Shown here: positions 6,200 through 32,000 of the stretch, in pieces
How positions within the stretch are numbered: position 1 is the stretch's first letter
How the letters are laid out: each line of letters starts with the position of its first letter
Assembly: GCA_031316235.1 (NCBI GenBank)
Contig: JALDRA010000001.1
Span: forward strand, 780,001 to 812,000
DNA length: 32,000 nt
Source: Candidatus Scalindua sp.
GTDB taxonomy: Bacteria > Planctomycetota > Brocadiia > Brocadiales > Scalinduaceae
Direction: 5' to 3'
Position numbers and translations under genes: made by a program
The notes under the pieces: generated by a model
Seen by the model: the letters and a program-made list of their open reading frames with translations, nothing else
What the model was told of the DNA's origin: nothing
The model's database searches: none

Positions 6200-6200
6200 A

Positions 6201-6244: not shown

Positions 6245-6547
6245 AGCTTGCAACAGCTAAAGGAGAGATCCATAGCCTTCAGATTTGTAAAATTCCTTAT
6301 AACGAAATCGAGCGCCATGAATATGACGCTGATACCATGAGGAGATGGCTCAGGGGAGATTCTACTTTCACTGATGTCAGTATAAGCCGTATCTATTAAT
6401 TAGCAAGGAATAAAATAAATAAATTAATATTCATTACCCAATCAGTCTGAAATACCTGTAGAATTTTTAGAGAAAACTACCCTTCGCCAGGGAACCCATA
6501 CTATTGGGAAAACAGCGGATAGAGCCACCCCTGTTTAATTTGTGTCG

Positions 6548-9109: not shown

Positions 9110-10477
9110 ATGAACCAGTCCGTAATGGGCAATGCCCTAAACATCTGGGAAGAAGTTCTCAGCGAAATCGAAACCAGAATTGGCTTGCGTATGTACAATT
9201 TATGGTTCAAGAACGTTCGATTACTTTCCCTCAATGACAACACCGCTATCATCAGTGTTCCCAACCTTTTTATACAGAGAAAGATATGCAACAACTTTGA
9301 ACCTTTTATTCGAGAGTCTTTAAAAAATGTAGCCAAAGTCAATCCATCCATACAATTCCACATTGAAAACAGTGCTGTTCAAAAAGAAAACAACAATAAC
9401 CCGATTTCACAATCGAAGCCAGATAATACCTCAAACCAGGATGCGTTAATCCCCAATAATAAGCTATTAACTCTAGAGGATTTCATAGTCGGAGATTGTA
9501 ACAGGCTGGCATATGCTTCTGCCCTTGAAATTTCCAAACCTGGACCAGTAGCATTCAACACTCTTTTCGTTCACGGTGCCATCGGTGTTGGTAAAACTCA
9601 CCTCCTCCAGGGTATCTGGAACAGACTGAAGACAGAATCTGCAAACATCAATGTTGTCTATAAACCTGCAGAAAACTGGACAAACGAGTTTGTATATTCT
9701 TTGAGAGGGGGAGGTCTGGAATCTTTCAGAAAGAGGTATCGGGGTACTGACATCTTTCTTGTCGATGACGTTCACTTTTTATCGAATAAGAAAGGTGTTC
9801 AGGAGGAATTTCTGCATACCTTCAATACCCTGCATAGTCTATCAAAAAGAGTGGTATTTGCGAGCGATGCCCATCCCCGATTAATGGTCCAGCTCAAAGA
9901 GAGTCTGGCCAGCAGGTTCATGTCGGGCATGATTGCTAAAATTGAACAACCGGGATTTGATACCTCCCTGCAAATTTTACGTTCAAAGGCTGCAAAAATA
10001 CGAAAAAAGATCCCTGAGAATGTTCTTGAATTTATATCTGAGAAGTTCAATGAAAACATAAGGTCCATGGAGAGCGCCTTAACAACTGTATTAGCCTACG
10101 CAAACATAAATAAGAAAAAAATCGATTTACCATTAGCCTGTAGCACGTTAAGCGAACTCTATGTGAATGCTGAAAAGAATATAACATTACAGGATATAGA
10201 AAGAGTAATTATTAATTATTACAAAGTTTCCCGAACCGATATTCATTCGAAAAACAAATCTAAAAATATCGTTTTTGCCCGCCAGCTTTGCATGTATCTT
10301 GCAAAAACTCTTACCGATTCCTCATACCAGGAGATCGGGACGTACTTCGGCAACAAAAGGCATACCACCGCGATCTTTGCTATAAACAAGATAAAGAGTA
10401 AAATGAAAGAGGATAATGAATTCAGGTCTCAAGTTGAAAACCTGACAAGAAAAACAAACAGCACTATTTTCTCTTGA
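9110..10477 (+). CDS. dnaA: Chromosomal replication initiator protein DnaA
   Basis: It has the Walker A motif GAIGVGKTHLLQ, Walker B FLVDDVHFL, and C-terminal domain IV ...IVFARQLCMYLAKTLTDSSYQEIGTYFGNKRHTTAIFAINKI. The start was set at the ATG at 9110; the ATG at 9125 is also possible. Confidence 0.93.
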   Translation: MNQSVMGNALNIWEEVLSEIETRIGLRMYNLWFKNVRLLSLNDNTAIISVPNLFIQRKICNNFEPFIRESLKNVAKVNPSIQFHIENSAVQKENNNNPISQSKPDNTSNQDALIPNNKLLTLEDFIVGDCNRLAYASALEISKPGPVAFNTLFVHGAIGVGKTHLLQGIWNRLKTESANINVVYKPAENWTNEFVYSLRGGGLESFRKRYRGTDIFLVDDVHFLSNKKGVQEEFLHTFNTLHSLSKRVVFASDAHPRLMVQLKESLASRFMSGMIAKIEQPGFDTSLQILRSKAAKIRKKIPENVLEFISEKFNENIRSMESALTTVLAYANINKKKIDLPLACSTLSELYVNAEKNITLQDIERVIINYYKVSRTDIHSKNKSKNIVFARQLCMYLAKTLTDSSYQEIGTYFGNKRHTTAIFAINKIKSKMKEDNEFRSQVENLTRKTNSTIFS

Positions 10478-17674: not shown

Positions 17675-18103
17675 TCACTTTATTTCATTAAGGTGATTAT
17701 CCATTTTATTTTCATTACCTGTTTGAGTGGCAGAATCGTGGATCCCGCTTTCCAGTACCCGTTTGCGCATATTGTAGCGGCCCTGTAATTCATCGATTAC
17801 GGTTCCTTCCCACAGTGGAGCGCCAAGCAAGTATGCCACACGCCCGATCATGTGAGCTCCCACCGGCGTCGTCAGAAAGATAAAGAAGATTACAAGGATG
17901 GTTTCGAAAATAACCCAGACCTCACCAAAATAGACGGCTACGGCGCACAGCATCAGAACCGAGCCAAAAGAAGCGGATTTAGTGGCCGTATGCATACGTG
18001 TAAACAGGTCTGGAAAGCGCACAATACCCAGAGCGGCTATAAACATAAATAGGGAGCCAGAGACCAACAGTATGGCGCAGATCCATTCCCGTATCATAAC
18101 CAT
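17675..18103 (-). CDS. mrpG: Na+/H+ antiporter Mrp/Mnh subunit G
   Basis: It is the last gene of a seven-gene co-directional operon. Its size, hydrophobicity and the motif RFPDLFTRMHTATK fit MnhG. It overlaps mrpF by 10 nt. Confidence 0.85.
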   Translation of the reverse strand: MVMIREWICAILLVSGSLFMFIAALGIVRFPDLFTRMHTATKSASFGSVLMLCAVAVYFGEVWVIFETILVIFFIFLTTPVGAHMIGRVAYLLGAPLWEGTVIDELQGRYNMRKRVLESGIHDSATQTGNENKMDNHLNEIK

Positions 18104-18378
18104 CTCCTTTCTAAATAACGCGCAAAGGCCACCGTGCCCAGAAATGCAATCATGGTCAGCACGACTGCCGTATTCAGAAAGACGGATTGTTTGGTAAGTA
18201 TTGTATATCCGGCAATCAAACCGACCGCCAACGAGACAATAAGGTCAAGGGCCACAATCCGGTCGGGCAGAACGGGACCGCGCGCCAGTCGAAAAAACGC
18301 CAGAAAAAGGGATATGATTAAGATAAAAAAAGCAAACAAGACCGCGCCCTTAATCAATGTAAGCTCTTGTAAGATCAT
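18094..18378 (-). CDS. mrpF: Mrp/Mnh subunit F
   Basis: A 94-aa three-helix membrane protein in the canonical position. It has a 4-nt overlap with mrpE. Confidence 0.8.
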   Translation of the reverse strand: MILQELTLIKGAVLFAFFILIISLFLAFFRLARGPVLPDRIVALDLIVSLAVGLIAGYTILTKQSVFLNTAVVLTMIAFLGTVAFARYLERRWL

Positions 18379-18725
18379 CCAAACACCCCCATTACCTTCT
18401 TTTCAAATCCCTCCTTGATCTCACGGCGAAGTCCCTCAAGATCATCGATGTACATGGCGTGGATATATAACACGCTCCCGTCAGTGGAGACGTCCAGACT
18501 CAGGGTGCCGGGCGTCATGGTGATAAGATTTGTCAAGGCTAAAATACCAAGGTCTGACTTGATATCCAGCGGGATGGCGATTATGCCTGGCTTCATGCGG
18601 TGGCGCGGCGTTAAAACATCGTGCGCTACCCGCAGGTTTGCCTGAAAGAGTTCTTTCAGGTAGAACAATGCGAACCAGACAATCATAAACAGTTTTATAA
18701 GGATCTTTCTAAAAATATTAATCAT
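18375..18725 (-). CDS. mrpE: Mrp/Mnh subunit E
   Basis: The position and the motif IAIPLD...[11 protein letters not shown] fit MnhE. At 116 aa it is short for the family, so the true start could differ. It has a 4-nt overlap with mrpD. Confidence 0.7.
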
Positions 18726-20233
18726 AATTTCCTCCCAAACACGGCATGAATATATTCAGACGGATCAAGCAACTGTTCGGCTGCGCGTGTGGCCAGGGTG
18801 AAGAACGGCTCTGCTGCCAAGCCCAACAGGACAGTTACAATGGCCAGTAATACAACGGGACTGAGAAAAAAGATTTGCGATTTTCTTGAAATTTGCGTCT
18901 GTTCGGAACCCATATATTCAGATTTAGTTGGCTCTGGTTTCCAAAAGGCTTCGCCCCAGATTTTTATCATAGAGAACAGGGTCAGGAGGCTGACGCCCAG
19001 AGCGGTGATCACTATGGCATATTGCTGCATTTCCAATCCAGCCTTTACCAGGGCAAGTTTGGCGAAAAAACCTGAAAGTGGCGGAATTCCAGCCAGGGAC
19101 ATTGCCGGTATCATAAACAATACGGCCAGGCCAGGCTTATTCCGGTAAAGCCCACCCAAATTCTTTAATTCATACGTTCTGTCAAGATGGTAAACCACAC
19201 CGCTTATCAGGAACAGATTTGTTTTCACTATGATATGGTGAATGATATAAAACACGGAACCGGCCAGAGCCAGCGGTGTGAACAAGGCCAGCCCCATGAT
19301 CATATATCCGATCTGGCTGATTATATGAAAGGACAAAATACGTCGAAACTCATTCTGCGCCATTGCCCCTAATACTCCTGTAACCATGGTTAATCCGGAA
19401 GCAATCAAAATCAATGTATGTGTGAAGCCCACGTCCTGTACAAAAAACAGGGTAAAGGAGCGGATCATGGCATAAACGCCCACCTTTGTCAGCAGACCAG
19501 CAAAGATAGCCGATACTGCCACCGGCGGTGTATGATACGAATCCGGCAGCCAGAAGAAAAGGGGAAAAATGGCCGCTTTTATCCCGAAAGCAATCAAGAA
19601 CAACATTGCCGAACTGTTAATCAGGTTGGACTGGGGTTCGAGGCTCAGTTTATAGGCCAGGTCGGCCATATTCAAGGTGCCGATTTTGCCGTACAATATT
19701 CCTATGCCCGCCAGAAACAGGGCCGAAGAAATCAGGTTCAGCGTAACGTACTTCAATGCGCCTTCAATCTGTGCCCTTTCGCCACCCAGGGCCATTAACA
19801 CGAACGAAGAAATCAGCAAGACTTCAAACCAGACGTAAAGGTTGAACAAGTCGCCGGTCAGGAATGCGCCGCACACACCCATTAACATAATGTGCAGGAG
19901 GGAGTAGTAGCCAAACTTCTCACGCTGCGCGTCCATACTTGCCAGGGAGTAAACGGCAACGGCAAATCCCATCAGCCCCGCCAGCGTAACCATGATAGCG
20001 CCAAAGAGATCGGCAACCAGCGTGATGCCGTAAGGCGCCGGCCAGTTGCCTATTTGCACAGCCTGGATGCCATCACCCTCTACCATTTTTAAAAGCGCCA
20101 GCGCTGCACCCAGTAAACCTGCTGCCCCTGCTACTCCCAGGATGCGCTGCGCCAATATCCAACGCCTGACAAACAGGGAGGCGATAGCGGTGGCAAAAGG
20201 AATTAGAATGGGCAAAACAATTAATAGCTTCAA
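18722..20233 (-). CDS. mrpD: Mrp/Mnh subunit D (NuoN/ND2-like proton-translocating subunit)
   Basis: A 503-aa polytopic protein with the NADH-quinone oxidoreductase chain-like pattern ([25 protein letters not shown]). Confidence 0.88.
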
Positions 20234-20577
20234 GTATCTATTCCTTTCATTTTATCCATGTCGTCCGTTCCGATTGTCTGGTAGGCACGATGAACCAGAA
20301 CAAGAATAAAGGCTAACACGCCAAAACCAATGACGATGGCTGTCAGAATTAGCGCTTGAGGCAACGGGTCTGCGTACGGCTGCGCCAGAGTTTCAGCTCC
20401 TTCTATAACCAGCGGCGGCCGGCCGCGAGTCAAACCACTTGCTGTAAAGATAAGCAAGTTGGTGGCGTTTAACAGCAATATAAACCCAATGACCAGTTTG
20501 ACAATGCTGCGCCGCAGCATCGAATAAAACCCTGCGGCATATAGGCCTCCGATCACAATAGCAAGAACCGTATCCAT
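20230..20577 (-). CDS. mrpC: Mrp/Mnh subunit C (NuoK-like)
   Basis: A 115-aa three-helix protein in the canonical order, with a 4-nt overlap with mrpD. Confidence 0.82.
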
Positions 20578-20586
20578 ATTTACTAT

Positions 20587-21000
20587 TTACTCCTCTGCCA
20601 GTGAAAAAACGATAGTTGTCGTAACCCCGATAACTACGAGATAAACGCCTGCGTCAAACACGAGAGGAGTGCCGATAGGTAATTTACCCAACCAGGGCAT
20701 GTTTAATACACTCCATTCACTCGACATAAATGGTTGATCATTAAAAAATGAGCGTATGCTGCTGCCGAATGCAACCAGAAGCCCAATGGCAATGAGTGTG
20801 TATGGTGCAATCAGTAATTTCCGGCTCGCTTCTGCCACTCCATGGGCGATGGCATAAAAAACAAACGCTCCGGCTGCGAGCAATCCTCCGATAAACCCTC
20901 CGCCCGGGGCATTATGCCCGCGTAGCAATATTATAACAGAAAATAATAAGAATATAGGCATCAGATAACGGGCAGCCGTGCGCAGAATTATTGAATCCAT
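20587..21000 (-). CDS. mrpB: Mrp/Mnh subunit B
   Basis: A 137-aa membrane protein containing RGHNAPGGGFIGGL, a typical MnhB motif. Its start directly abuts the mrpA stop. Confidence 0.82.
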   Translation of the reverse strand: MDSIILRTAARYLMPIFLLFSVIILLRGHNAPGGGFIGGLLAAGAFVFYAIAHGVAEASRKLLIAPYTLIAIGLLVAFGSSIRSFFNDQPFMSSEWSVLNMPWLGKLPIGTPLVFDAGVYLVVIGVTTTIVFSLAEE

Positions 21001-23307
21001 TTATACCCCCTTCGGCTTGAGTTTCAACTTAAGCAATGCGTAAACACCGATGCCGGCAACAGCAAGTACCGTAATTTCCCCCAGTGTATCAAGGGCGCGA
21101 AAATCTACCAGAATAACGTTGACGATATTACGCCCGTGGGCAAGCGGCACACTATTCTCTGCAAAATAACTGGAGATGGTTGGATGAAATTGAACGTTGG
21201 TTGCCTTTAACACCAAAGCGGTCATGGTTCCGCCGGCAAATAATGAGATCAATGCGTCGCGGATACGCACTGTTACACTGGATAATTTAGAAAAGTTTGG
21301 TAGATGATAAACCACCAGCACGAATAAGATAACGGTTAATGTTTCAATCAGAATCTGGGTATTGGCCAGGTCTGGCGCTCCATGAATAATATAAATCAAG
21401 GCCACACTGTATCCCACCACACCAAGTGCTGCAACCGCTGTCAATCTGGAGTTGGTTAGAATCGACAGCAATGCTCCCATCAAGATGAGAGCCGCCAGTC
21501 CTGCTTCATAAAACTGTATATTCGACAGGTTAACCGGCCCATGCAATCCTCCTAAACTAATCAGCGCGTACAATACCAGAGCCGTGGTAACGGTAAAAAT
21601 AATTAACAGATAATAACGCTGATATCCGCTCTGTATTATTCTGGTCTGCAGAGAGGCTATCGCCATCAACCCATCGAGTGACTGTTTATACAGGTGCGTA
21701 GGGCTAAGTACGACAACATTGCTCAATTGTGACAGGACTTTTATCAGCTTGCTTCTTACTGCAAATAATCCCAACCCGCCAGCAACGGTAATGGCACCTA
21801 TGGCAAGCACCGGATTCAGGCCATGCCACAAGGCCAGTTTTACGGGAACCGGATGTCCGATTATGGCCGATACGGCTGGAGCTATCAGGGAGGTGTCGAC
21901 CAGACCAGGCGCCACACCACAGGCCAATCCTGAACCAGCCAATAACACAGGCCCCAGCCACAAACTTGCCGTCGGCTCATCTGGTTTTTTGGGCAGGGTA
22001 TTTTTACGTCCGATGAACGGGAGAATACCTGCCATCCCGGCCGCCGCAAACAATAACATGCCCGTCAACATAGATACGCCAGTTAATAGATGAGCAGCCG
22101 ATTGGGCCGTTAATCCTGCTTCATAAAAAAGTTCTTTTCCAATAAAACCGAAGAAAGGCGGAAACCCGGACATCGACAGCGCAGCCAGTCCGGCAGCGAT
22201 TGCCGTAATCGGCATGACACGCCACAGGCCACCGAGCCGGTTCACATCGCGCATGCCGGTTTCATGATCAACAGCGCCTGCTACTAAAAACAGGGCAGCC
22301 TTGTACAAGACATGACCAACCAGGAAAACCATGGCTGCCTTAATCGCCAATTCCGTACCTAAACCCAGGAGCATGGTTAGAATACCCAGAACACTTACTG
22401 TGGAGTATGCCAGGATGAGTTTGAGGTCGGACTGCTGGATGGCCATATATGCGCCAACCACCATGGTCGTAGCGCCTGCGGTGGTGAGGGAATAGAGCCA
22501 GAGATCGGTGCCTCCCAGAACGGGGCTCAGGCGGGCCAGCAGGTAAATACCCGCCTTCACCATGGTTGCGGAATGCAGATAAGCGCTGACCGGAGTGGGC
22601 GCTTCCATTGCACTCGGCAACCAGAAATGAAAAGGAACCTGAGCAGATTTGGTAAAGGCGCCGGCCAGAACGAGGAGTAGAATTGGGACATAAAGCTGGT
22701 GATTTCGTATCGCATCGCCGCTGTTTAGCAAGTTGGAAAGCTCCAGGCAGTCGCCGGCCTGTCCCAACAAGATAAATCCCGCCAATAAGGCCAGTCCCCC
22801 AATACCGGTTACCAGCAGCGCCTGTAGCGCCGCTGCGCGTGATTCATGACGATCGTGTTCAAAACCGATCAGGAAATATGAGCTCAGGCTGGTTAGCTCC
22901 CAGAATACAAAAAGTGTAATCAGGTTATCTGCCAGAACAACCCCGAGCATCGAGGCCATGAACATCAAGATATAGAGGTAAAATCTGCCAAGGCAAGGAT
23001 GCCCGGACAAGTACCTGCCTGCGTATATCAGTATCAGAGCTCCGATACTGCTGATTAGCAAAGCAAAGAGCAGGCTCAAGCCATCTAAATAAAAGGAAAG
23101 ATTAATCCCTAAACTTGGTATCCATCGAAAGGATTCGGTCATGATCTCGCCTGAGCGTACTTGTGGAATAAGGCTTGAAAAGTAGGCCGCCAGACCCAGT
23201 GGCAGCATGGCAGCAATCCAACCGGTTGCTCCACGTCCGATCCGATACAAAACTGGAGCGAAAAGCGCCAGCACAAAAACAGACAAAATTGAAGTAATTA
23301 TCCCCAT
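21001..23307 (-). CDS. mrpA: Mrp/Mnh subunit A (NuoL/ND5-like, with a fused MrpB-like C-terminal domain)
   Basis: A ~770-aa polytopic protein with [26 protein letters not shown] prefer the in-frame ATG at 23307 ([10 protein letters not shown]...). The track ORF starts at a GTG at 23346. Confidence 0.88.
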
Positions 23308-23371
23308 AGTGTGATGATCAGATCCATTATAAGTCAATTCGCCCACTCTGGCGTTAAAATTTTTTGTGATG

Positions 23372-23461
23372 GATGATAGGATGATGAAAGGAATTTGCTT
23401 TTTTGAGATTCTGCGATTTTAGATAAAATGTTAATTAAACACAAGTGCTTTTTGGGTGTTA
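23372..23461. repeat. Cassette-junction direct repeat R1 (~90 bp, with an 11-bp internal insertion at 23380-23390)
   Basis: It aligns base-for-base with R2 and R4 from GATGATAGG through ...GGGTGTTA. The exceptions are an imperfect tandem duplication (GATGATGAAAG) and one T/C difference. Similarity decays after 23461. Confidence 0.9.
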
Positions 23462-23870
23462 TGTCCTGTATTGATCTACTTTGTTATAAAAGTGGATGAA
23501 AAAGAGAAAATATGGAGATTTGAATATAAGTAACGGTGTTTTTGTGATGACTTGTCAAAAAGTATACATACCTCTCCTGGGATTCCTGCATTATGGCAAA
23601 TTTTCAAGAGAGAAGGTATTACGGATTCTATATTGCTATCTGGTATCTCTACGATATAATCAACTTTTATGGTTGCCTGCATAAGAGTTCCTTTTTTTAA
23701 GTTTCTGGATACTCGTATCTTAAAGTGAACTCACCTGTTTTGTAACCTTTTATTCTTTGAGTCTCCCAATTGTTACGCTGTTAGAAAATTTATACTTGTA
23801 TTACGGATAAGAAGTTAAGAGAACAAATTAATATATAAACATAGATACTACATTTGAAGGAGTGATTTAT

Positions 23871-24587
23871 ATGTCAAATCAATTTAATAAAGACGAAAGA
23901 ATCGGTAAGATAGTTATAGATTTCCCTGAATCTGCTGAAATTTTCATGAAACATGAAATAGACTTTTGCTGTGGTGGAGACAGATCAGTAGAAGTAGCTA
24001 TAACAGAGGATAATCCTGAAGTGGAAGTAGATGCAGTATTAAGTGAAATAAATGAAGCTTATGACAACTTCTTAAGTGAAGACTATAAGCAATCTGACTG
24101 GGAAAGCAAGAGTATGACAGAATTACTTGAATTTGTAGAAAATACTCACCATGCTTTTATGAAAAAGACTTTACCAATAACAGAGGAACTTCTATTGAAA
24201 ATATTTAAAGTTCATTATTCAGATGACAAGGACCTTCTTACAGAAATGTATAAACTTTTCATGTTATTAAATTTAGATATAAATATACATTTAATAAAAG
24301 AAGAAGAAGAGTTCTTCCCAGCAATAAGAGAATATGAAAGGACTCAAGACAAAGATGAATTAAAAAAAGTTTTAAAAATGATTTCAGATGCAGAAGATGA
24401 ACACGATGCGGCGGGAGATATTCTTAAAAGCTTGAGAAAATTAACTAATAACTACACATTACCAGAATATGGATGTACTACTTTCAGAATAGTTTATGAT
24501 AAAATGCAAGAAATAGAATCAGACTTGTTTCAACACATTCATTTAGAAAATAATTTACTTTTCTATAAGTTAAAAACAGAACAATAA
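23871..24587 (+). CDS. scdA: Iron-sulfur cluster repair di-iron protein (RIC; ScdA/YtfE family)
   Basis: The N-terminal ScdA_N motif is IDFCCGG. Hemerythrin-like H/E motifs follow (HHAFMKK, EEEEFFP, EHDAAGD, HIHLENNLLF). AAGGAG lies 8 nt upstream of the ATG at 23871. A hand count of line 23881-23940 gives 18/60 G+C. Confidence 0.85.
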   Translation: MSNQFNKDERIGKIVIDFPESAEIFMKHEIDFCCGGDRSVEVAITEDNPEVEVDAVLSEINEAYDNFLSEDYKQSDWESKSMTELLEFVENTHHAFMKKTLPITEELLLKIFKVHYSDDKDLLTEMYKLFMLLNLDINIHLIKEEEEFFPAIREYERTQDKDELKKVLKMISDAEDEHDAAGDILKSLRKLTNNYTLPEYGCTTFRIVYDKMQEIESDLFQHIHLENNLLFYKLKTEQ

Positions 24588-24676
24588 TAAATTGTGAAGT
24601 GGGCCCCATTTCATATTTACACTATATGAGGCCATTTCCTGATTTGAAGGGGTTGTTGTGTTTCAGATTAGGGTTT

Positions 24677-25375
24677 TCAAGCCGGTACATCAATCATGAT
24701 GAATTCAGAAGAATCAGTCGCCACGATTTCAAGGGATAATTCATTTTTAATTCTGGCTTGATCACGCGTTTCGATTATAGCGTTGTTTACTTCTGCTTTG
24801 CCTTTAATCATGTAGATAAAGGGATTTCTGTTTTCATCGAATTCAAGGTCAAGCCGTTTTCCTTTTTCAAGGACTGCTCTGTAAATGGATGCTTCTGTGT
24901 TCAGAGAGACAATGCCTTCACCAGGTGTATCCGATGCTAAAAGTTTAATTTTGTTCTGCCATAAATCCGGTTTAAATCCTTTCTGAGCATAGGAAGGTTC
25001 AAGCCCCCTTTTATCTGGATTGATCCAGATCTGAAAAAAATAAACCGGTTTATCGCTCAGGTTTCGTTCCGAATGATAGAGTCCGGTTCCGGCTGTCATG
25101 CGCTGGACATCATTTTTCCTTATAGTGGTTGTATTACCCATGGTATCTTCATGAACCATTTCACCATCAAGGACAATGGATATAATCTCCATTTCCTCAT
25201 GGGGATGAGTATCAAATCCTTTTTGTGCTTTAACAATATCATCATTAAACACGCGCAGTCTTCCATGGGAAATGTTTTCAGGATCATGATAGTTGCTGAA
25301 CGAAAACAACCAATATGTTTGAAGCCAACCAAAGTCATTGAAGTGCCTATCATTTGATTTTACGATTTGTATCAT
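24677..25375 (-). CDS. Pirin-family cupin (YhhW/quercetinase-like)
   Basis: FDTHPHEEMEIISIVLDGEMVHED and MTAGTGLYHSE are the two pirin cupin metal-binding motifs. The 232 aa length fits. Confidence 0.85.
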   Translation of the reverse strand: MIQIVKSNDRHFNDFGWLQTYWLFSFSNYHDPENISHGRLRVFNDDIVKAQKGFDTHPHEEMEIISIVLDGEMVHEDTMGNTTTIRKNDVQRMTAGTGLYHSERNLSDKPVYFFQIWINPDKRGLEPSYAQKGFKPDLWQNKIKLLASDTPGEGIVSLNTEASIYRAVLEKGKRLDLEFDENRNPFIYMIKGKAEVNNAIIETRDQARIKNELSLEIVATDSSEFIMIDVPA

Positions 25376-25500
25376 GTCGATATTCCTTTCATTAATGTTT
25401 AAGATAAATCAACTGTTTTCAAGTCCGAGCTTTTTTAACAATTCGCCGAGCTGTGTTTGCTCGTCAGTATCCTGTACTGAAAAAAACAGAGTCTGCAATT

Positions 25501-25655
25501 GATGATAGGAATTTGCTTTTTTGAGATTCTGCGATTTTAGATAAAATGTTAATAAAACACAAGTGCTTTCTGGGTGTTACGCCCGGCAAAGGGAAGGCGA
25601 CCTTGATTGTTACCAAGGGCATAATGGGGGTCGATAACCGTCACGGCCAAACTCA
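25501..25655. repeat. Cassette-junction direct repeat R2 (long form, ~155 bp; right side cut by a group II intron)
   Basis: It matches R4 over its whole length, with about six differences and without the hairpin-element insertion. The match ends at ...AAACTCA, where intron domain VI-like sequence begins. Confidence 0.9.
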
Positions 25656-26262
25656 ATCTGGTAGGAAGCGGCCTAAAGGTCGCCCCCTCCCAACAGAACG
25701 GATCGTACCGGCCAGGTAAGCCGCTCCTCGATTAGTGACCAAAATAAAATTTGAGATTCCGCTCCGTGAAACTGTCTAATGAAATTAGACCCTTTTGTCT
25801 GAACCACTTCAAGCTTAGAACAAAACGGACTTGCGGTCTTGTTACAGATTGCCATTTTGACATCTTTACCCATGTCTTCTTGGCTTCCACCGCTTTGTAT
25901 CCCGCTCGGTACATCATCCTTTGGAATTTCCCGGGCTTCTTCCACTTCTTTAGCTGCATTGATCGTAGTCTACTCCTGGTAAACTCGTCTAATTGTCGAA
26001 ATATCTGCTTTAATTCCTGTACTCGAAAGTAGCCAACCCAGCCCTGCAAGTAGTCAGTTAATTCTTGAATAATCTGATGCATGGACAAGGGGTTGTTGCG
26101 CTTACTCATTTCCCGTACTTTATTCTTAAAGATATTTACTGCCTTTGTGCTAATTCGTATCTTACCCCTGAGTATCTGAAAACCCAAAAATGTAGCCCGT
26201 TTTGTCTCTATTACGTCACTTCTCTCTCTATTGACTCGTAGCTCTAACTCATCCTTTAACTC
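25656..26262 (-). mobile_element. Group II intron remnant: 3' ~600 nt (RT/maturase C-terminus plus domains V-VI), 5'-truncated
   Basis: The minus-strand ORF encodes the maturase/X-domain pattern (LTDYLQGWVGYFR...). Downstream, GAGCGGCTTACCTGGCCGGTACGATCCGTTC (25726-25696) folds as a domain V with the AGC triad, a 2-nt CG bulge and the closing GAGC../..GTTC helix. It is followed by a domain VI-like helix (GGAGGGGGCGACC/GGCCGCTTCC) and ...CTACCAGAT. Confidence 0.8.
25732..26262 (-). pseudogene. Group II intron reverse transcriptase/maturase, C-terminal fragment only
   Basis: The in-frame reading extends upstream of the track ORF (ELKDELELRVNRERSDVIETKRATFLGFQILRGKIRIS...), which is RT domain 7 followed by the X domain. 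It is cut off near 26262 by unrelated sequence, so RT domains 0-6 are absent. Confidence 0.8.
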
Positions 26263-26358
26263 ACGCTAGCATCAAAAGAAGCCGGTTTTATCACCGGTCA
26301 AACCATAATCATTGATGGGGGGCAGATTCTGCCCGAATCGCCTGAAGCGCTGCTCTAA
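26263..26358 (+). pseudogene. Short-chain dehydrogenase/reductase, C-terminal 31-aa fragment
   Basis: My own translation gives TLASKEAGFITGQTIIIDGGQILPESPEALL*, the typical SDR C-terminus (..ITGQ.I.VDGG..). No upstream part exists. The fragment is flanked by TCACGCT on both sides (26261-26267 and 26360-26366). Confidence 0.7.
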
Positions 26359-26575
26359 GTCACGCTCAGACCGCTACTCCCCGAAAAAGACACTTTATCC
26401 GCCAGGTTTGAGGATTCAATGCCCTTTAGAGGAGGTGGGGGTAAAAACTTGATCATCGAATTATAAGTATTTTTTACATTGGTTGTATTAAAAAGTATAC
26501 TTGGTAATTAAGAACCGCTACTATGGCTTATCAAGAAAGGATCTACTCAGGGGTTGACTAAGACTGAGAGAAACT

Positions 26576-27090
26576 ATGGTAGAAGTCGGATATTTAAGGG
26601 TTAGCCCTGTCGGTCAGGCTACATACCGGTAGCTTACCGATATTAACCAGGATAAAACATTTACTGACAAAATATCCGGAGCATCTTTCAATAGGCCTGA
26701 GATGCAAGCCTGTTTCGAATATCTGCGGGAAGGTGACAGGCTCCATGTCCATTCGATGGACCAGTTGGCCTGAAATCTTGCAGATCTCCAAAGGATAGTT
26801 GAGAATCTCAACGCCCAGGGCATTGTCGTGAAATTTCACAAAGAGGGTCTGGAGTTCATCGGGGAGGATTCCCCTATGGCCCGATTGCTCATGCAAATGA
26901 TGGGAGCCGTTGCCGAATTTGAACGATCCTTGATCCGTGAACGGCAGGCCGAAGGTATAAAAAAACTCGGGAGAGAGGCGTAATGTTCAGCATGAAATTT
27001 AAACTCAATGATTCTCAGAAACGGGAGATCATCGCCCTGGTGGATGCTGGTCAGACAAAAAAGGCTGTGGCTGTCATGTTTACGATCGTA
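26576..27090 (+). pseudogene. Serine recombinase (resolvase/invertase) pseudogene
   Basis: MVEVGYLRVSPVGQATYR*... continues in frame as ...LHVHSMDQLA*NLADLQRIVENLNAQGIVVKF...EFERSLIRERQAEGI. It has in-frame TAG (26630-26632) and TGA stops where family members have Q/R codons. A frameshift precedes the HTH part (KLNDSQKREIIALVDAGQTKK). Confidence 0.8.
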
Positions 27091-27138
27091 TGTTTAAGAA
27101 GAGCTTTTGCAGCGCTTTTGACGAATCAGATTTATTAG

Positions 27139-27199
27139 GCATTATTTGATACAATTAAGACAAATTCAACAGATTTATCATAATTGTATCAAATAATGC
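27139..27199. repeat. Perfect 19-bp inverted repeat with a 23-nt spacer
   Basis: GCATTATTTGATACAATTA (27139-27157) is the exact reverse complement of TAATTGTATCAAATAATGC (27181-27199). It sits between the resolvase remnant and the Y1-transposase remnant. Confidence 0.7.
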
Positions 27200-27260
27200 G
27201 ACAAACTGCAAACTCGCAGCAAGTAAAATCAATTACTTACAAGGAATGGACTCTTCTCTT

Positions 27261-27389
27261 TTAAGAAAAATGTGATCCAAGAAAATTGCCATGATCCTGA
27301 TCATCACTGAAAATATTGCGCCGCCCGGTTCTGTGGGCGATGATATGATGCAGAGCACCGGGAGCATCAATTCTGGATTGGCGTGGCAT
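27261..27389 (-). pseudogene. IS200-like/RayT-like Y1 (HUH) transposase, N-terminal 42-codon fragment
   Basis: My own translation gives MPRQSRIDAPGALHHIIAHRTGRRNIFSDDQDHGNFLGSHFS*. The pattern MPR..R...PG..HH...R...R..IF.DD.D...FL matches the N-terminus of REP-associated/IS200-like tyrosine transposases. It is prematurely terminated. Confidence 0.6.
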
Positions 27390-27499
27390 CGTGGCATAAA
27401 TGTTCATTATAAGGTCGATGATCGTCTGTAAAGTTTAAAGAATGAGAGCGTCCTTCATCTTCCCGGGCCGATGATTCCAAAGCCCATTTCGTATCCTGT

Positions 27500-28759
27500 T
27501 CACTTTGTCTTCCTAAAGAGATCGAGCGCAATCTCGTAGCACGGGTCGGGGCGTTTGAACAGGTATTTGCCATGGCGGATCGATGCCAGCACGTCGGCAC
27601 GCCGACGCACAGCCTCGAAGGGCGAATCAGCGTCCAGAACCAGGAAGTTGGCCGGCTTGTTCTCTTCGATGCCGTACTGATCTTCCACGTTCAAAGTCTT
27701 GGCGCCGTTGTAGGTGATCAGGTCCAAGCACTTGTCCAGTTCCTCCAACGACATGATCTGCGCCAGGTGAATGCCGTTGTCCAGAATGTTCATCAGGTTA
27801 CCGTTGCCGGCCGGATACCACGGGTCGTTAATAGAGTCCTGGCCAAAACAGATATTGATACCGCTTTCCCACAGCTCCTTCACCCGAGTCAGGCCACGGC
27901 GCTTGGGATAGGTGTCCTGCCGACCCTGCAGAAAGGCATTCTCGGTTGGCAGCGAGATAAAGTTCAGCCCCGACTGCTGGAACAGACTCATCATGCGGAA
28001 AGCGTAGGAATTGTCCGCCGATCCGAAAGAGCAGGTGTGGCTTGCGGCCGTGCGAGTGCCAATACCTTCGGTCATCACCAGGGCGTTGAGCAGTTCGACG
28101 AAGCGGCTCATCACGTCGTCGGTCTCGTCACAATGCACGTCGATTAGTTTGTCGTACTTGACGGCCAGCTCAACTGTGCGGTGGATGGACTTCTCGCCGA
28201 TTTCGCGGGCCCACTCGAAGTGCGGGATGGCGCCGACACAGTCCGCACCCATCTTCAGCGCTTCCTCAATCATTTCGTCGCCACCCTTGTAGGCGTACAT
28301 GCCCTCCTGCGGGAATGCAACGATCTGAATGGTGACGTTGCCCTTGAGCTGTTCCCGGACTTCCAGCATCGCCTTCAGTCCGGTCAGTTTGGGATCATCC
28401 ACATCGATGTGGGTGCGGATAAACTGGACACCTTTGGAAACCTCTTCCTGGATGCCCTTCAGCGCACGTTCCCTGGCGTCCTCGAGCGTCTGAGTTTTCT
28501 TGACGTCGTGCCAACGGGCGATCCCTTCGAACAGCGTGCCGCTCGTGTTCTTGGCGCCCTCGCTGCGGGCGGTGTAGACGTAATCCAGGTGCAGGTGGGG
28601 ATCCACGTAGGGCGGAACCACCAGACGGCCCCCCAGGTCGATTTCCTCGTCTGCCTTGGGTAAATTTTTGCCGATCTGTTTGATGACACCTTTATCGACC
28701 AGAATCTCGCTGACCTCATCGTGCTGTCGGTAGATTAGAGCATTGGTGAATTTTTTCAT
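27500..28759 (-). CDS. codA: Cytosine deaminase (amidohydrolase superfamily)
   Basis: From memory, it is collinear with E. coli CodA: PPYVDPHLHLD, GTLFEGI, IRTHIDV, IVAFPQEG, GAIPHFE, LIDVHCDETDD, TASHT, TYPKRRG and DPWYP. Hand counts give 41/60 G+C on line 28201-28260 and 33/60 on line 27721-27780. Confidence 0.88.
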   Translation of the reverse strand: MKKFTNALIYRQHDEVSEILVDKGVIKQIGKNLPKADEEIDLGGRLVVPPYVDPHLHLDYVYTARSEGAKNTSGTLFEGIARWHDVKKTQTLEDARERALKGIQEEVSKGVQFIRTHIDVDDPKLTGLKAMLEVREQLKGNVTIQIVAFPQEGMYAYKGGDEMIEEALKMGADCVGAIPHFEWAREIGEKSIHRTVELAVKYDKLIDVHCDETDDVMSRFVELLNALVMTEGIGTRTAASHTCSFGSADNSYAFRMMSLFQQSGLNFISLPTENAFLQGRQDTYPKRRGLTRVKELWESGINICFGQDSINDPWYPAGNGNLMNILDNGIHLAQIMSLEELDKCLDLITYNGAKTLNVEDQYGIEENKPANFLVLDADSPFEAVRRRADVLASIRHGKYLFKRPDPCYEIALDLFRKTK

Positions 28760-28801
28760 GGTTTTCCCCTTGTCGGAGCAAGGGCGTGTTCCTTCTGCAC
28801 C

Positions 28802-30184
28802 TTATGCCGGGTCATCAATTGAGGCCACGCGCACCACCTTTTTGTTTATGAATTCCTGGATCCCCATGCAGGAAAGATTGCGGCCATAACCGGAATCCAT
28901 GATGCCACCGAAGGGCAGTTCCGGCGCCGTCCAGGTGGGTTGATTGATGAAGACCATACCGGTGTTGAGGCGGCTGGCCAGACGTTGGCCGCGCGCAACA
29001 TCGCGGGTAAAGATCGATGCTCCCAAACCAAAATCCGAGTCATTGGCGAGCGCCACGGCTTCGTCCTCGTCCTTGATCCGGAACATCAGCGCAACGGGGC
29101 CGAAGAATTCCTCGCGGTAAGCGGGATTGCCTGGCTTGAGATTCATGAGAATCGTCGCCTCCATGAACGTGCCGGGCCGCTCGATCCGTTTGCCGCCCAG
29201 GACGACCTTGGCCCCACTTGCGACGGCTTGATCTACCTGCTTCAACAATTTAACCAGTGCCCCTTCCGAGGAGACCGGCCCGAGCGTTGTGGTTTCGTCC
29301 ATCGGGTCTCCGGGCGTGAGGGCCGAGAGCGCGGTCTTGAATTTTTCCAGAAACCGGTCGGCCAATTCCTCAACGACAATGAAACGTTTTGCAGCGATGC
29401 AGGACTGACCGACGAGCGTCATTTTGGCCCAGACCGCCCACTCCACGGTTTTGTCCAGATCGGCGTCTTCGAGCACGATAAAGGCGTCGTTCGCCGACAG
29501 TTCCATGGTGGATTTTTTGAGGTTTCTTCCGGCTTGCTCGGCCACGGCCTTGCCAGCTGCCAAACTGCCGGTCAACGCCACACCTTTGATGCGGGGATCC
29601 TCGATCACGCGACTCACCTGATCATGGGAAATGAAAAGGTTGGTGTAAACGCCCGCGGGCGCGCCTGCTTCGAGCCATAACTTTTCAAAGGCGAGGGCGC
29701 ACTGCGGCACGGATTTGGCATGCTTCACCACCACGACGTTGCCTGCCATCAGATTCGGCGCCGCAAAGCGTGCGAGTAAATGGTACGGAAGATTCCAGAC
29801 CTGAATACCGAGGAGCACACCGAGCGGGGCGTTCTCGATCCTGGCTTCACCCGAAAGTGGCTTAAGAGGTTCGGGGGCGAGGAAACTCTCGGCATTCTTG
29901 GCGTAGTAATCGATGACGCCCGCAGTCAACTCCACTTCGCCCTTCGCTTCGGCGATGAGCTTTCCCATCTCGAGAGTCACGAGGCGGGCGAGTTCGTCGA
30001 CCCGTTCACGCATGAGGGAAGCGGCTTTTGCCGCGATGGCTCCACGCTCGGCGAAGGTGGTGAGTCGCCATTTCTCAAAACAGTTTGCGGCGGTTTCGAT
30101 CGCCGTTTCGAGTTGCGCGTCGGTCAGTTGTTCAAACGCCTTCACGGTTTCTCCGTTGAAGGGATTCACAGTTTGGTAACTCAT
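28802..30184 (-). CDS. NAD(P)-dependent succinate-semialdehyde dehydrogenase, Sad/YneI-like aldehyde dehydrogenase
   Basis: A 460-aa ALDH with the catalytic Cys context VGQSCIAAKRF, EEFFGPV and PFGG. Several normally conserved motifs deviate: ELGG is ELSA, WNFP is WNLP and GRE is GRN. Activity is therefore not assured. Confidence 0.75.
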   Translation of the reverse strand: MSYQTVNPFNGETVKAFEQLTDAQLETAIETAANCFEKWRLTTFAERGAIAAKAASLMRERVDELARLVTLEMGKLIAEAKGEVELTAGVIDYYAKNAESFLAPEPLKPLSGEARIENAPLGVLLGIQVWNLPYHLLARFAAPNLMAGNVVVVKHAKSVPQCALAFEKLWLEAGAPAGVYTNLFISHDQVSRVIEDPRIKGVALTGSLAAGKAVAEQAGRNLKKSTMELSANDAFIVLEDADLDKTVEWAVWAKMTLVGQSCIAAKRFIVVEELADRFLEKFKTALSALTPGDPMDETTTLGPVSSEGALVKLLKQVDQAVASGAKVVLGGKRIERPGTFMEATILMNLKPGNPAYREEFFGPVALMFRIKDEDEAVALANDSDFGLGASIFTRDVARGQRLASRLNTGMVFINQPTWTAPELPFGGIMDSGYGRNLSCMGIQEFINKKVVRVASIDDPA

Positions 30185-30259
30185 AATTTTTTCCTTTCGG
30201 GTGGTTTAGCTCAGATGCGGCAATAGTTTCATAGTGATTTCAATTTCTTACTTGTGCCG

Positions 30260-30299
30260 GATGATAGGAATTTGCTTTTTTGAGATTCTGCGATTTTAG
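30260..30299. repeat. Cassette-junction direct repeat R3 (short form, the 40-bp core only)
   Basis: GATGATAGGAATTTGCTTTTTTGAGATTCTGCGATTTTAG is identical to the first 40 bp of R2 and R4. Unrelated sequence lies on both sides. Confidence 0.9.
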
Positions 30300-30327
30300 T
30301 GTTATCTCTCCTCTCTAGTGTTTCTCA

Positions 30328-31323
30328 TTAATTTCTCATTGCTCTTAACTGTGCTGATTGTCTTAGTTTATCTATATTATATTTTTTATATAATTCACTT
30401 GTACTGTAAGCATATTTAATAGTATGAACATTTGTTGAATTAGAGCTGTCTCTAATTATATTATCCCAGGATTTGTTTTCTCCTAAATCCATTGGAACAC
30501 CTTCATTATCTGCTGTTAAAAGATGTGTAATAATATAAGTTGTCATAATATCTAATATATATGAAAAGTTATTAAAATAATCTTCTAATACTAATAAAGC
30601 TTGGAGCCCTGTTATACAGTGGAGTACTAGTATACTGTCTGTCTCATCTAATATAGGCAGTAGTAATTCTAATAAATTAACCACCTTCTCCTCGTTGCTT
30701 CCATCAATTAACAATCCCATTTCCATATATTTGCTGTCATTGTAAAGAGCATGTAACTTTTTACCACGAGATGGGTTGGATTTTAATAATTCAATAATTT
30801 CTCCATTATTAAATACCTTTTCTATACTTTCCAAAAACCGGGAAGGATTTACCTTTTTGTTAAATACACTTCCCTCTCTATAAGCTGTTATATAATAAGC
30901 CAAAGCTCTGGCTACTTCCTCTTCTAGATCTTGATCTAATTTCATACCTTCAACTGCATAGGCTAATCTAATAGTAGTGTGAAATAATCCTGATGATATA
31001 CCAAGAGGATAACTGTTTAATACTTCTGCAATAACTTTTTCTACACCTTTTAATTGAATTTCTTTTTCTATAAGTAATAGACAAGCTTCATACAAATCTC
31101 TTTTCCCTACACATTCAGTTATAGTTTCTACTGGACTAAATTCAACTTTTATCTTGTCTATTCTTCCCGATTTTATATAGCTTTCAGAATATGATGCTAT
31201 TTTTTCTACATCATTTCCCATCATATATAATGCCAATTGACCCATAGGCAAATGATTTACTAGGTCACTTGCATATGGTGAAAAGGTCCTAGCATATTGA
31301 TTTACAACTTCTGAAATTTTCAT
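30328..31323 (-). CDS. DUF4243/questin-oxidase-like protein (tentative)
   Basis: A 331-aa ORF with a GGAGGGAG RBS upstream. The N-terminal pattern ...NHLPMGQLALY... and HTTIRLAYAVEG resemble the questin oxidase-like family as I recall it. It is extremely AT-rich: hand counts give 10/60 G+C on line 30541-30600 and 14/60 on line 31021-31080. Confidence 0.5.
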   Translation of the reverse strand: MKISEVVNQYARTFSPYASDLVNHLPMGQLALYMMGNDVEKIASYSESYIKSGRIDKIKVEFSPVETITECVGKRDLYEACLLLIEKEIQLKGVEKVIAEVLNSYPLGISSGLFHTTIRLAYAVEGMKLDQDLEEEVARALAYYITAYREGSVFNKKVNPSRFLESIEKVFNNGEIIELLKSNPSRGKKLHALYNDSKYMEMGLLIDGSNEEKVVNLLELLLPILDETDSILVLHCITGLQALLVLEDYFNNFSYILDIMTTYIITHLLTADNEGVPMDLGENKSWDNIIRDSSNSTNVHTIKYAYSTSELYKKYNIDKLRQSAQLRAMRN

Positions 31324-31381
31324 AAATACTCCCTCCGATTAGATGAGAGATGATAGGAATTTGCTTTTTTGAGATTCTGCG

Positions 31382-31410
31382 ATTTTAGATAAAATGTTAA
31401 TTAAACACAA
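31382..31410 (-). promoter_or_regulatory. Putative sigma70-type promoter inside the repeat (minus strand): TTGTGT-17 nt-TAAAAT
   Basis: On the minus strand the -35-like TTGTGT is at plus coordinates 31410-31405. A 17-nt spacer separates it from the -10-like TAAAAT at 31387-31382. The same elements occur in R1 and R2. R3 keeps only the -10 and the downstream 34 nt. This rests on a motif match only. Confidence 0.3.
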
Positions 31411-31460
31411 GTGCTTTCTGGGTGTTACGCCCGGCAAAGGGAAGGCGGCCTTGATTGTTA

Positions 31461-31524
31461 TACTCATCTCATAATGGTTTTCGGATAAAATCCGAGATAA
31501 AATTGAGCGGGTATACCTTCACCA
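31461..31524 (+). mobile_element. Hairpin repeat family A, short copy inserted into R4 (MITE/REP-like)
   Basis: It is present in R4 between ...CCTTGATTGTTA and CCAGGGC, which are contiguous in R2. It matches 6108-6199 except for the 28-bp internal block. Confidence 0.75.
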
Positions 31525-31563
31525 GGGCATAATGGAGATCGATAACCGTCACGGCGAAACTCA

Positions 31564-31799
31564 GTATTGATGGCTCGACGGGGTCAGCCAGTGGAAGAAC
31601 AGAGATAAACGCCTTTGATTGGCCCGTAGTGAAAACATTGACCTCATAGTAGCATAGTAGTCGGTACCCCCATGGAAGCACGGGACTTGGCACATGTAGT
31701 GCTTGCTGGGAACACACAGCAACGCAGGTTGTGCGCAAAGCCTGGATTCCGGTGTTGACGGTACCCGTTCGCACACAAATTTGCGGTGGCTGTACGGGA
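31564..31799 (-). ncRNA. Candidate structured non-coding RNA or structured rtcB 3' UTR (unclassified)
   Basis: There is no credible ORF here; the two track ORFs look like nonsense. Nested hairpins are dense on the minus strand: CCCGT..ACGGG enclosing CGCA..TGCG just after the rtcB stop; GCGCA-CAACC-TGCGT; AAGCAC..GTGCTT flanked by CCC..GGG; and TGGCT-GAC-GGG-GTC-AGCCA at 31571-31590. I recognise no known RNA family. Confidence 0.3.
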
Positions 31800-32000
31800 T
31801 TACCCCTTGATAACAGCCAGGGGCTGCAACTCTATTTGCACCTCAACCAGGTCGGTCTGATTTTGCATCACCTCATCGATATCTTTGTAGGATTCCGGTG
31901 CCTCATCCAGATCCGAGCGGCGGCGGATGCCGTGCAAAATTCCGCTTTCATCGAGGGATTTTACCACCTCCTTCAAGTCCAGCGTTTTGCGTGCCCGGGC
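31800..32000 (-). CDS. rtcB: RNA-splicing ligase RtcB, C-terminal 66 aa; the N-terminus lies beyond the right edge
   Basis: My own translation gives ...GILHGIRRRSDLDEAPESYKDIDEVMQNQTDLVEVQIELQPLAVIKG*. The ...EAP.AYKDID.VM...DLVEV...L.P...IKG C-terminus is characteristic of RtcB. Confidence 0.8.
   Translation of the reverse strand, partial: ARARKTLDLKEVVKSLDESGILHGIRRRSDLDEAPESYKDIDEVMQNQTDLVEVQIELQPLAVIKG

Follow-up and report, generated by a model that had tools for sequence, protein, structure and literature searches.

Direct repeats between foreign genes in Candidatus Scalindua as probable transposase-less ends of an IS91/ISCR-like rolling-circle transposon

A stretch of 32,000 nucleotides (nt) from the anammox planctomycete Candidatus Scalindua sp. 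(contig JALDRA010000001.1, positions 780,001 to 812,000; hereafter the window) carries four near-identical direct repeats, R1 to R4, between an mrp antiporter operon and an rtcB gene, and the repeats separate blocks of foreign genes. With a probability of roughly 0.78, these repeats are the transposase-less oriIS-side ends of an IS91/ISCR-like rolling-circle (HUH Y2) transposon, the oriIS side being the one that lies downstream of the transposase gene and from which rolling-circle transposition sets out. On this reading, the window copies belong to a known kind of element, of which they represent a distinct subfamily end, the host being unusual and the cargo consisting of genes other than resistance genes, and we infer that the array as a whole is a fossil of ISCR-type gene capture. 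The repeats and their common terminal motif are as follows.

R1, 23372–23503, minus strand: probable transposase-less oriIS-end stub, upstream of mrpA
R2, 25501–25655, minus strand: 155-nt probable oriIS-end stub, upstream of the pirin gene; distal side ended or interrupted by a group II intron fragment
R3, 30260–30299, minus strand: probable oriIS-end stub of exactly 40 nt, upstream of the aldehyde dehydrogenase gene; distal edge abuts the end of a Firmicutes-like DUF4243 segment
R4, 31349–31563, minus strand: longest probable stub, 215 nt including a 65-nt insertion (31459–31523) resembling a MITE (miniature inverted-repeat transposable element); upstream of the DUF4243 gene
Terminal motif AAAAGCAAATTCCTAT (element end), 31353–31368, minus strand; also at 25505–25520, 30264–30279 and, with one mismatch, 23387–23402

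On the plus strand, a 40-mer recurs in direct orientation at 23383 (with one mismatch), 25501, 30260 and 31349, where shuffled sequence would be expected to hold none. The initial annotation, made from the letters of the sequence, had reported these four copies in one orientation and with a common left base, all of which stands; its start of R1 at 23372 does not, because an 11-nt imperfect tandem of the terminus (GATGATAGGAT, 23372–23382) directly precedes the real copy, which opens with 23383–23393. Aligned on the minus strand, the four copies share one nucleotide-exact edge, ...GCAAATTCCTATCATC, beyond which the sequence is unrelated (TCTCAT, CGGCAC, AATTGC and ATCCTA, with no common core). 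The other, distal edge differs from copy to copy, as had also been described, and lies at 40 nt in R3, 80 nt in R1 (the shared part), 155 nt in R2 and at least 215 nt in R4. R1 is 97% identical to R2 and R4 over its 80 nt, up to 23462, and is extended by 30–40 nt that represent another variant of this kind of end and match two metagenome loci (L069 and L043). Each copy does lie directly upstream of a minus-strand gene, the distance to the start codon being 25 or 36 nt for mrpA, 125 nt for pirin, 75 nt for the aldehyde dehydrogenase and 25 nt for the DUF4243/questin-oxidase-like gene. Inverted copies of the terminal 20-mer or of the 40-mer, with up to 3–4 mismatches, were not found in the window. 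An open reading frame (ORF) that runs through the repeat had no real homologues among 1.8 billion representatives (one repeat-like hit at 32% identity) and is treated as non-coding.

The four nucleotides beyond the motif are CATC in every window copy (31349–31352 at R4; GATG on the plus strand). Judged by comparison with related elements, the true element end is ...TTCCTAT, with CATC behaving as flank or target. The edge of R4 also carries a 7-nt imperfect copy of the terminus (TCTCATC).

The relatives of this end came to light with a short query, namely the terminal 20-mer GATGATAGGAATTTGCTTTT, shortened from a 31-mer core. The 31-mer itself was found in two contigs of the same organism, L001 from GTDB (assigned to Desulfobulbus sp. 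by binning) and L013 from ENA, and was absent from the JGI metagenomes; a 24-mer was absent from viral contigs, R4 with its adjoining spacer had no BLAST match among plasmids and phages, the 40-mer had only chance-level matches to plasmids, and a literature search on the motif string returned nothing relevant. The terminal 20-mer, by comparison, occurs exactly in 82 metagenome contigs that range from 31 to 67% G+C and present about 60 different contexts on each side. Outside the motif these contigs show no conservation apart from a weak run of C before it, and where two loci agree over hundreds to thousands of nucleotides distally, all homology is lost 0–8 nt after the motif, as at the fixed edge in the window. 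Pfam scans of nearby ORFs recovered the Y2_Tnp and Zn_Tnp_IS91 domains, and tblastn showed that 19 of the 82 loci (10 of 61 distinct contexts) have an IS91-family transposase, or what remains of one, upstream of the motif and on its strand; L032, L037, L078 and L096 are among the transposase-bearing loci that have the same end. Transposases that retain their C-terminus end 190–345 nt before the motif, and three internally truncated remnants lie 67–87 nt away. Six other metagenome contexts contain two or three direct copies of the motif each, none of them inverted, and the flanks of variant copies read CAGC, CGTT, CACC and CAGT.

At about 30% identity, the C-terminal half of one metagenome transposase matches the IS91-like transposases of ISCR1 and ISVsa3 (ISCR2), which thousands of plasmids carry. 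The best plasmid match, at 47%, is a "transposase" at 13 places of the Trichlorobacter lovleyi plasmid pIAE1 (NZ_CP058410.1). Five identical copies of a 445-aa transposase (WP_224963446.1) lie there in direct orientation within 33 kb, and each is followed by GAAAAAGCAAATTCCTAT, located 216 nt past the stop codon. The copies part right after TTCCTAT, with TCCT as the flank of three and TGAC as that of two, and four of the five have extra upstream genes in common, co-duplicated to a variable extent, a pattern typical of one-ended transposition. Also on the plasmid is a stub that lacks the transposase and bears, in tandem, a 22-nt mini-copy of the terminus. Since the pIAE1 copies are intact and identical, the element is probably active, and the 33-kb array can be regarded as the live counterpart of the one in Scalindua. 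Between 162 and 195 kb, pIAE1 has at least five identical elements with assorted metabolic and other genes of chromosomal type (gshB, tatA/C, ribBA, selA and cobO) between them, and a module of a hydrolase plus YoeB/antitoxin is duplicated in the same region.

Short tandem duplications, (TCATC)n-like repeats among them, tend to arise in DNA beside the element end; in the window they occupy 23372–23393 and 31342–31352. Elsewhere, L041 has 14 nt more than L019, L036 has a 23-nt tandem and pIAE1 has the 22-nt mini-copy (166994–167037), and edge repeats of this sort also occur in L045, L066 and L085. Such tandems may be footprints of repeated nicking or of slippage at oriIS.

Published ISCR ends carry the same core at a similar distance from the transposase gene. 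The oriIS of ISCR27 is GCGGTTGAACTTCCTATACC, 236 bp after the transposase stop (PMC8894482), and the right end of ISCR1 is GTGGTTTATACTTCCTATACCC (PMC13023784); direct inspection of ISCR1 on an E. coli plasmid put TTCCTAT 222 nt past the transposase stop. The assignment of the fixed edge as an oriIS-type terminus follows from this match of core and position to ISCR1 and ISCR27, together with the Y2 transposase partners and the pIAE1 copies. Work with ISCR1 has also shown that its 232-bp oriIS region forms a fixed boundary beside 93 groups of different first downstream genes, and that outward promoters in it raise the expression of downstream genes 13- to 15-fold (PMC6218425). Members of the IS91 family make no target duplication and transpose from oriIS to terIS; one-ended transposition is frequent, and termination often fails, so that DNA beyond terIS is carried along (PMC13181058). 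The serial, end-specific insertion proposed in the initial annotation is a fair description of how this family behaves. Its statement that it knew of no described system of such architecture falls, given that IS91/ISCR elements fit, and the repeat turns out to be essentially what that annotation had set against its own proposal, namely the end of a known insertion sequence (IS) with ordinary transposase partners, the latter being the Y2 transposases of the metagenomes and of the Trichlorobacter plasmid.

Several observations weigh against this assignment. The 32-kb window contained no transposase homologue (best tblastn E value 0.4; Pfam scans of the ORFs), so membership in the family has to be read from the DNA end by itself; a transposase is present in related loci with the same end and absent here, which makes the window copies remnants and not complete members. 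The canonical IS91 target tetranucleotide next to oriIS, CTTG or GTTC, adjoins no copy, the flank being CATC here and TCCT or TGAC in Trichlorobacter, although a differing target preference of the subfamily is possible. No subterminal hairpin is predicted in the stubs: single-stranded DNA folds of R1, R2 and R3, on both strands, were no stabler than shuffles (z-scores of −0.07 to 0.83), and a weak 5-bp stem (AACAC...GTGTT) was the only pairing. A transposase remnant appears in only about a quarter of the metagenome contexts that have enough upstream sequence, and most copies are orphans, which leaves room for the motif to serve another purpose. The five known junctions of the repeat (the four in the window and that of L013) all have the same CATC flank, a pattern that fits copying by recombination as well as independent insertions. 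The repeat in L001 and L013 stays with the downstream DUF4243 gene while the DNA after the gene differs, unlike a simple unit of cargo plus downstream stub. Finally, a single genome does not allow the individual events to be put in order or their mechanism to be retraced.

The two contigs with the longer match bear directly on what the moving unit might be. Both have 59 nt of the repeat ahead of a DUF4243 gene that is 92% identical to that of the window, and the junction is nearly the same, with an 11-nt difference; the DNA distal to the repeat is unlike that of the window, and the DNA after the gene is unlike the window and unlike in the two contigs. They come from different samples, are 99% identical and agree in stub, gene and over 1.4 kb of upstream DNA, then diverge 10–25 nt past the DUF4243 stop at points that differ between them and from the window. 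At 2.7x coverage and 44% G+C, the assignment of L001 to Desulfobulbus is possibly a binning error. The 40-mer is identical between the window and L013 while the third codon positions of the adjacent DUF4243 gene differ by 12%, which argues for constraint or recent exchange. The conserved junction of repeat and DUF4243 gene in L013 suggests a unit consisting of a stub and the gene downstream of it, while the mechanics of rolling-circle transposition, and the fact that R3 exactly meets the end of the Firmicutes-like segment, suggest a unit of a gene and the stub downstream of it.

The cargo between the repeats falls into three blocks.

Cargo block 1, 23504–25500, 34% G+C: pirin gene 24677–25375 (minus strand), gene for a ScdA-type di-iron protein 23862–24587 (plus strand) and a 68-aa ORF 23476–23682 (minus strand)
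Cargo block 2, 27500–30259, minus strand, 57% G+C, proteobacteria-like: NAD-dependent succinate-semialdehyde/aldehyde dehydrogenase gene 28802–30184 and cytosine deaminase-type amidohydrolase gene (codA) 27500–28759
Cargo block 3, 30300–31348, minus strand, 30% G+C, of Firmicutes-like origin: DUF4243/questin-oxidase-like gene 30328–31323

The contrast in composition that had been estimated by hand is borne out by computed values of 0.34 for scdA/pirin, 0.57 for codA, 0.58 for the aldehyde dehydrogenase and 0.30 for DUF4243, set beside 0.40 for the window backbone and 0.49 for the mrp operon; G+C at third codon positions ranges across the blocks from 0.19 to 0.75. Block 3 is 88% identical to a Firmicutes-like contig of 31% G+C (L012), with homology that spans 31341 to 30300 and thus begins 7 nt off the edge of R4 and stops exactly at the distal edge of R3; past the R3 junction point, this donor contig continues with the start codon of its next gene. 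Homologues of the DUF4243 protein are mostly from Clostridia and Tissierellia. The codA gene has 79% DNA identity to a plasmid-borne codA of Citrobacter (enterobacterial), and the aldehyde dehydrogenase is 73–74% identical to proteobacterial gabD. Composition and sequence matches alike mark the blocks between the repeats as DNA acquired horizontally from different sources, as had been claimed, and synteny with other Scalindua stops at the edge of R1. A comparison of the DUF4243 gene with that of L013 (L012 was also compared) gave 36 differences at first and second codon positions against 41 at third positions, which suggests that selection on the acquired gene has been relaxed or diversifying since its transfer.

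The presence of codA, a counter-selection marker, raised the matter of an engineered construct, an idea rejected with a codA that is only 79% identical to the Citrobacter plasmid gene and a partial match of 71% on one E. coli plasmid.

The array would have arisen by IS91/ISCR-type transposition. A fixed oriIS start and a leaky terIS end would yield insertions with one constant and one variable end, and one-ended transposition would carry adjacent DNA along, with copies piling up in direct orientation. Successive events would then build an array of foreign genes plus end stubs, the units being inserted or recombined one by one, and homologous recombination between copies would have contributed too. 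Later deletions would have removed the transposase genes and most of the oriIS regions. The stubs would probably have been kept since an outward promoter drives the foreign genes, as the oriIS of ISCR1 does.

A more speculative extension of this scheme is rather unlikely. Direct oriIS stubs would here define cassette-like units that an IS91-family transposase mobilises in trans, by nicking at one stub and terminating at the next, and the resulting circles of genes plus stub would re-insert at a stub or a short target. If true, there would be an integron-like shuffling platform based on rolling-circle transposition in environmental bacteria, including anammox planctomycetes, with a promoter of its own for every unit, and repeated nicking and rejoining would have left the (TCATC)n repeats and the mini-copies of 11 and 22 nt as footprints.

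The stubs themselves contain a motif read from the sequence that could serve as such an outward promoter.

Outward promoter-like motif TTGTGT-17 nt-TAAAAT, minus strand: 31382–31410 (R4), 25534–25562 (R2) and 23416–23444 (R1)

R3 has kept the TAAAAT box alone (30293–30298). The motif, a putative outward promoter that faces the co-oriented downstream gene, scores below the threshold of a consensus scan. A rival reading is that the repeats are a portable promoter or 5′-leader module, a "putative mobile promoter" of the kind already described (PMC3575422), which homologous or illegitimate recombination has spread; the 20-mer would then be a transcription or translation signal and its IS91 neighbourhood secondary. 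All four copies lie 25–125 nt upstream of co-oriented genes, the TTGTGT-17-TAAAAT motif is found within the copies, the 40-mer is conserved above neutral sites, and the majority of motif copies have no transposase. Co-oriented gene starts are also enriched after the motif in metagenomes, with an ORF start at most 130 nt downstream in 16 of 51 contexts against 5.0 expected (about threefold), and one copy (L045, 1420–1577) lies 38 nt upstream of a bacterial signal recognition particle RNA gene (Rfam, 70 bits), so such stubs also land in front of RNA genes. However, a transcription signal would not be expected to keep 17–20 of 20 nt identical across hosts of 31–67% G+C with no other conserved promoter element, and the G+C-rich loci have no σ70-like motif upstream of the 20-mer. 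Moreover, the motif is the exact end point of multi-copy, transposase-bearing elements, and its core sequence and its distance from the transposase stop match published oriIS ends. A promoter role does not exclude the transposon reading in any case, the oriIS of ISCR1 being an end and a promoter at once, and as an explanation in its own right the portable module is improbable.

The foreign units in one orientation had earlier been likened to an integron cassette array, a comparison that fails in its details: the repeats have no attC-like fold, no GTTRRRY core occurs at the boundaries, and no integrase lies adjacent. The proposal of the initial annotation amounts to a new site-specific cassette system, in which a recombinase encoded outside the window would insert circular units of a gene and a partial site at the fixed edge. 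The nucleotide-exact edge, the uniform orientation of the foreign units and the variable DNA that the same edge bounds in other genomes would all suit it, as would the presence of a Xer-type recombinase gene (4353–5255) in the window and of a resolvase pseudogene inside the array. Yet the repeats have no attC fold, no conserved core follows the edge, the recombinase genes are either 18 kb away beside glyS or dead, and the DUF4243 gene of L013 has no partial site within 1.1 kb after it. The edge is, besides, already explained by a known transposon end that has its own transposase in other genomes, which leaves a new cassette system very improbable.

The Xer-type tyrosine recombinase gene (plus strand) overlaps the end of glyS and lies 4 kb upstream of dnaA (9077–10477) and 18 kb off the array; it is probably a housekeeping XerC/D, and no link between it and the array was found. 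No tRNA or transfer-messenger RNA gene is present in the window, which excludes the repeats as the 3′ portion of an integration target within an RNA gene. Other identities considered for the repeat, namely a Xer/dif-type site, a sigma-54 promoter, a Bacteroidetes-type promoter and a Tn3-type inverted repeat, were set aside on a poor by-eye fit to the consensus sequences, and no inverted copies occur.

The array is bordered by the following sequences.

mrpABCDEFG operon, 17675–23346, minus strand: native, 91–93% nucleotide identity to other Scalindua; upstream region replaced by R1 from 23372
rtcB–R4 spacer, 31564–31799, minus strand: 236 nt, unique, 53% G+C
rtcB 3′ end, 31800–32000, minus strand: host gene, cut by the end of the window

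MrpA shows 93% identity to its counterpart in Candidatus Scalindua brodae, and homology of the mrp operon to S. brodae (L007 and L008) and to a JGI Scalindua contig (L009) ends at 23370–23375, which is the edge of R1. These relatives have another antiporter cluster upstream of mrpA and no repeat, and in L009 the native sequence upstream of mrpA already reads CATC where the junction lies. On the other side, the spacer showed no similarity to Pfam, Rfam or transposases, its fold is not convincing (z-score −1.8), and it is not conserved downstream of rtcB in relatives; the closest rtcB-bearing contigs continue from rtcB into unrelated DNA. With mrp homology ending at R1 and the DNA after rtcB unconserved, the whole 8.4 kb between rtcB and mrpA is lineage-specific. 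An "empty site" with rtcB, repeat and mrpA contiguous, which the initial annotation had proposed to look for, was not found among the Scalindua relatives and rtcB-bearing contigs. Database entries of 69 and 101 aa labelled "RtcB" had suggested a split rtcB, and proved to be gene calls truncated at or near contig ends.

A jump in G+C from 30% to 57% at the repeats could also mean that an assembler joined contigs of different organisms at a short common repeat. All blocks are found at 100% identity in Logan unitigs (k=31) from three runs of one project; these unitigs end within the 40-mer, and the order of the blocks is thus not fixed by the short-read graph alone. The window, however, comes from a single contig of 4,149,782 bp, and the annotation has the same gene order: the products of the pirin, codA, aldehyde dehydrogenase, DUF4243 and mrp genes are identical to NCBI proteins whose accessions run consecutively in window order. 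The longest exact stretches common to the copies, about 40–60 nt, are shorter than a read (R3 measures only 40 nt), diagnostic mismatches and insertions separate the copies, and the same architecture with intact elements is seen in a finished plasmid. An assembly chimera is consequently highly unlikely.

A view that nothing mobile is present in the array has to be revised. The region between codA and R2 and its neighbourhood hold several pieces of mobile debris.

Debris region, 25656–27499, mixed strands: other mobile elements and gene fragments, between codA and R2
Group II intron 3′ fragment, 25656 to about 26200, minus strand: domains V/VI and maturase X domain, 5′-truncated
C-terminal fragment of a short-chain dehydrogenase/reductase gene, about 26275–26375, plus strand: gene tail
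Serine-recombinase (resolvase) pseudogene, about 26575–27138, plus strand: Pfam Resolvase E value 3e-28, two in-frame stops and a frameshift
Hairpin of 27 nt, 27139–27199
IS200/RAYT-like transposase N-terminal fragment, 27261–27407, minus strand: recognised by eye only, no Pfam hit

Rfam returned nothing over the window at the gathering threshold and, at a relaxed threshold, the group II intron fragment only. The match to RF00029 scores 27 bits (gathering score 40), covers the full model and ends exactly at 25656; the ORF that adjoins the intron 3′ end has a GIIM maturase domain (E value 7e-19), and the reverse transcriptase domain and the 5′ part are absent. The intron lies 151 nt from the element end TTCCTAT, exactly at the distal edge of R2, and the R4 sequence at that position is unrelated, which indicates that the intron entered the oriIS region of an element copy ancestral to R2. 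The 65-nt MITE-like element in R4 has a second copy at 6106–6160, with a 28-nt extra insert and running to about 6200. Given that R2 has the intron without the MITE-like element and R4 the MITE-like element without the intron, neither of these present copies is the direct parent of the other. The MITE-like repeats have TATAC... ends and a central hairpin, TCGGATAAAATCCGA. A second small repeat family consists of a 53-nt inverted pair, with arms at 1183–1235 and 6193–6245, about 5 kb apart.

ISCR-type gene capture is known mainly from antibiotic-resistance plasmids of Proteobacteria. The array in Scalindua would extend it to the chromosome of an uncultured marine anammox bacterium, where metabolic genes derived from Firmicutes and Proteobacteria appear to have been set behind a putative transposon-borne promoter. 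The 16–17-nt motif, conserved across hosts of varied G+C and mostly without a transposase, offers a handle for finding capture sites, and possibly mobile promoters, in metagenomes. Annotation calls for some care as well: where near-identical intergenic repeats form an array and have one sharp edge, they should be compared with IS91-family ends before new recombination systems are invoked.

Among known systems, the closest are the ISCR elements, the IS91-like "common regions" of complex class 1 integrons. Like ISCR1, ISCR2/ISVsa3 and ISCR27, the Scalindua repeats have an oriIS-type end with a TTCCTAT core, which in full-length elements falls about 220–240 nt past the transposase stop, and an exact boundary beside many different, often foreign genes. 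Outward promoters in the oriIS region, established by experiment for ISCR1 and represented here by a promoter-like motif, may be common ground as well, and so are direct repeats and partial duplications of variable size, ascribed to one-ended rolling-circle transposition and homologous recombination. They differ from ISCR in the terminus outside the core (AAAAGCAAATTCCTAT here, ...TATACTTCCTATACCC there), in the transposases of the related full-length elements, which are only about 30% identical to those of ISCR1 and ISCR2, in the host (an anammox planctomycete as opposed to clinical Proteobacteria), in cargo that is metabolic and not resistance-related, and in that four of four window copies have no transposase.

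A second group, IS91, IS801 and IS1294, resembles the system at hand in that the related full-length elements encode a transposase with Zn_Tnp_IS91 and Y2_Tnp domains in an element of about 1.7 kb, and in an end that is never inverted, with a fixed oriIS and a variable terIS side with co-mobilised upstream DNA (as the Trichlorobacter plasmid shows directly). Unlike in that group, the flanking tetranucleotide is neither CTTG nor GTTC, and the stubs have no predicted subterminal palindrome. The pIAE1 element itself has the identical 16–17-nt terminal motif, direct copies with cargo between them, and a transposase-less stub and a short tandem of the terminus, as at R1 and R4; the rest of its 216-nt oriIS region is unrelated to the repeats, and the window has stubs only.

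Integron cassette arrays likewise have genes of mixed origin in one orientation, a recurring separator and a promoter-bearing platform alongside. The Scalindua array differs from them in having no IntI, attC fold or GTTRRRY core, the only tyrosine recombinase in the window being Xer-like and none lying beside an attI, and in having a copy of the promoter-like motif per unit. Finally, the mobile promoters surveyed by Matus-Garcia, Nijveen and van Passel (2012) also present near-identical upstream regions before unrelated genes, and some such families proved to be IS ends (PMC3575422). Theirs is a descriptive category without a mechanism, whereas the array in Scalindua comes with an identified mobile element behind the repeat.

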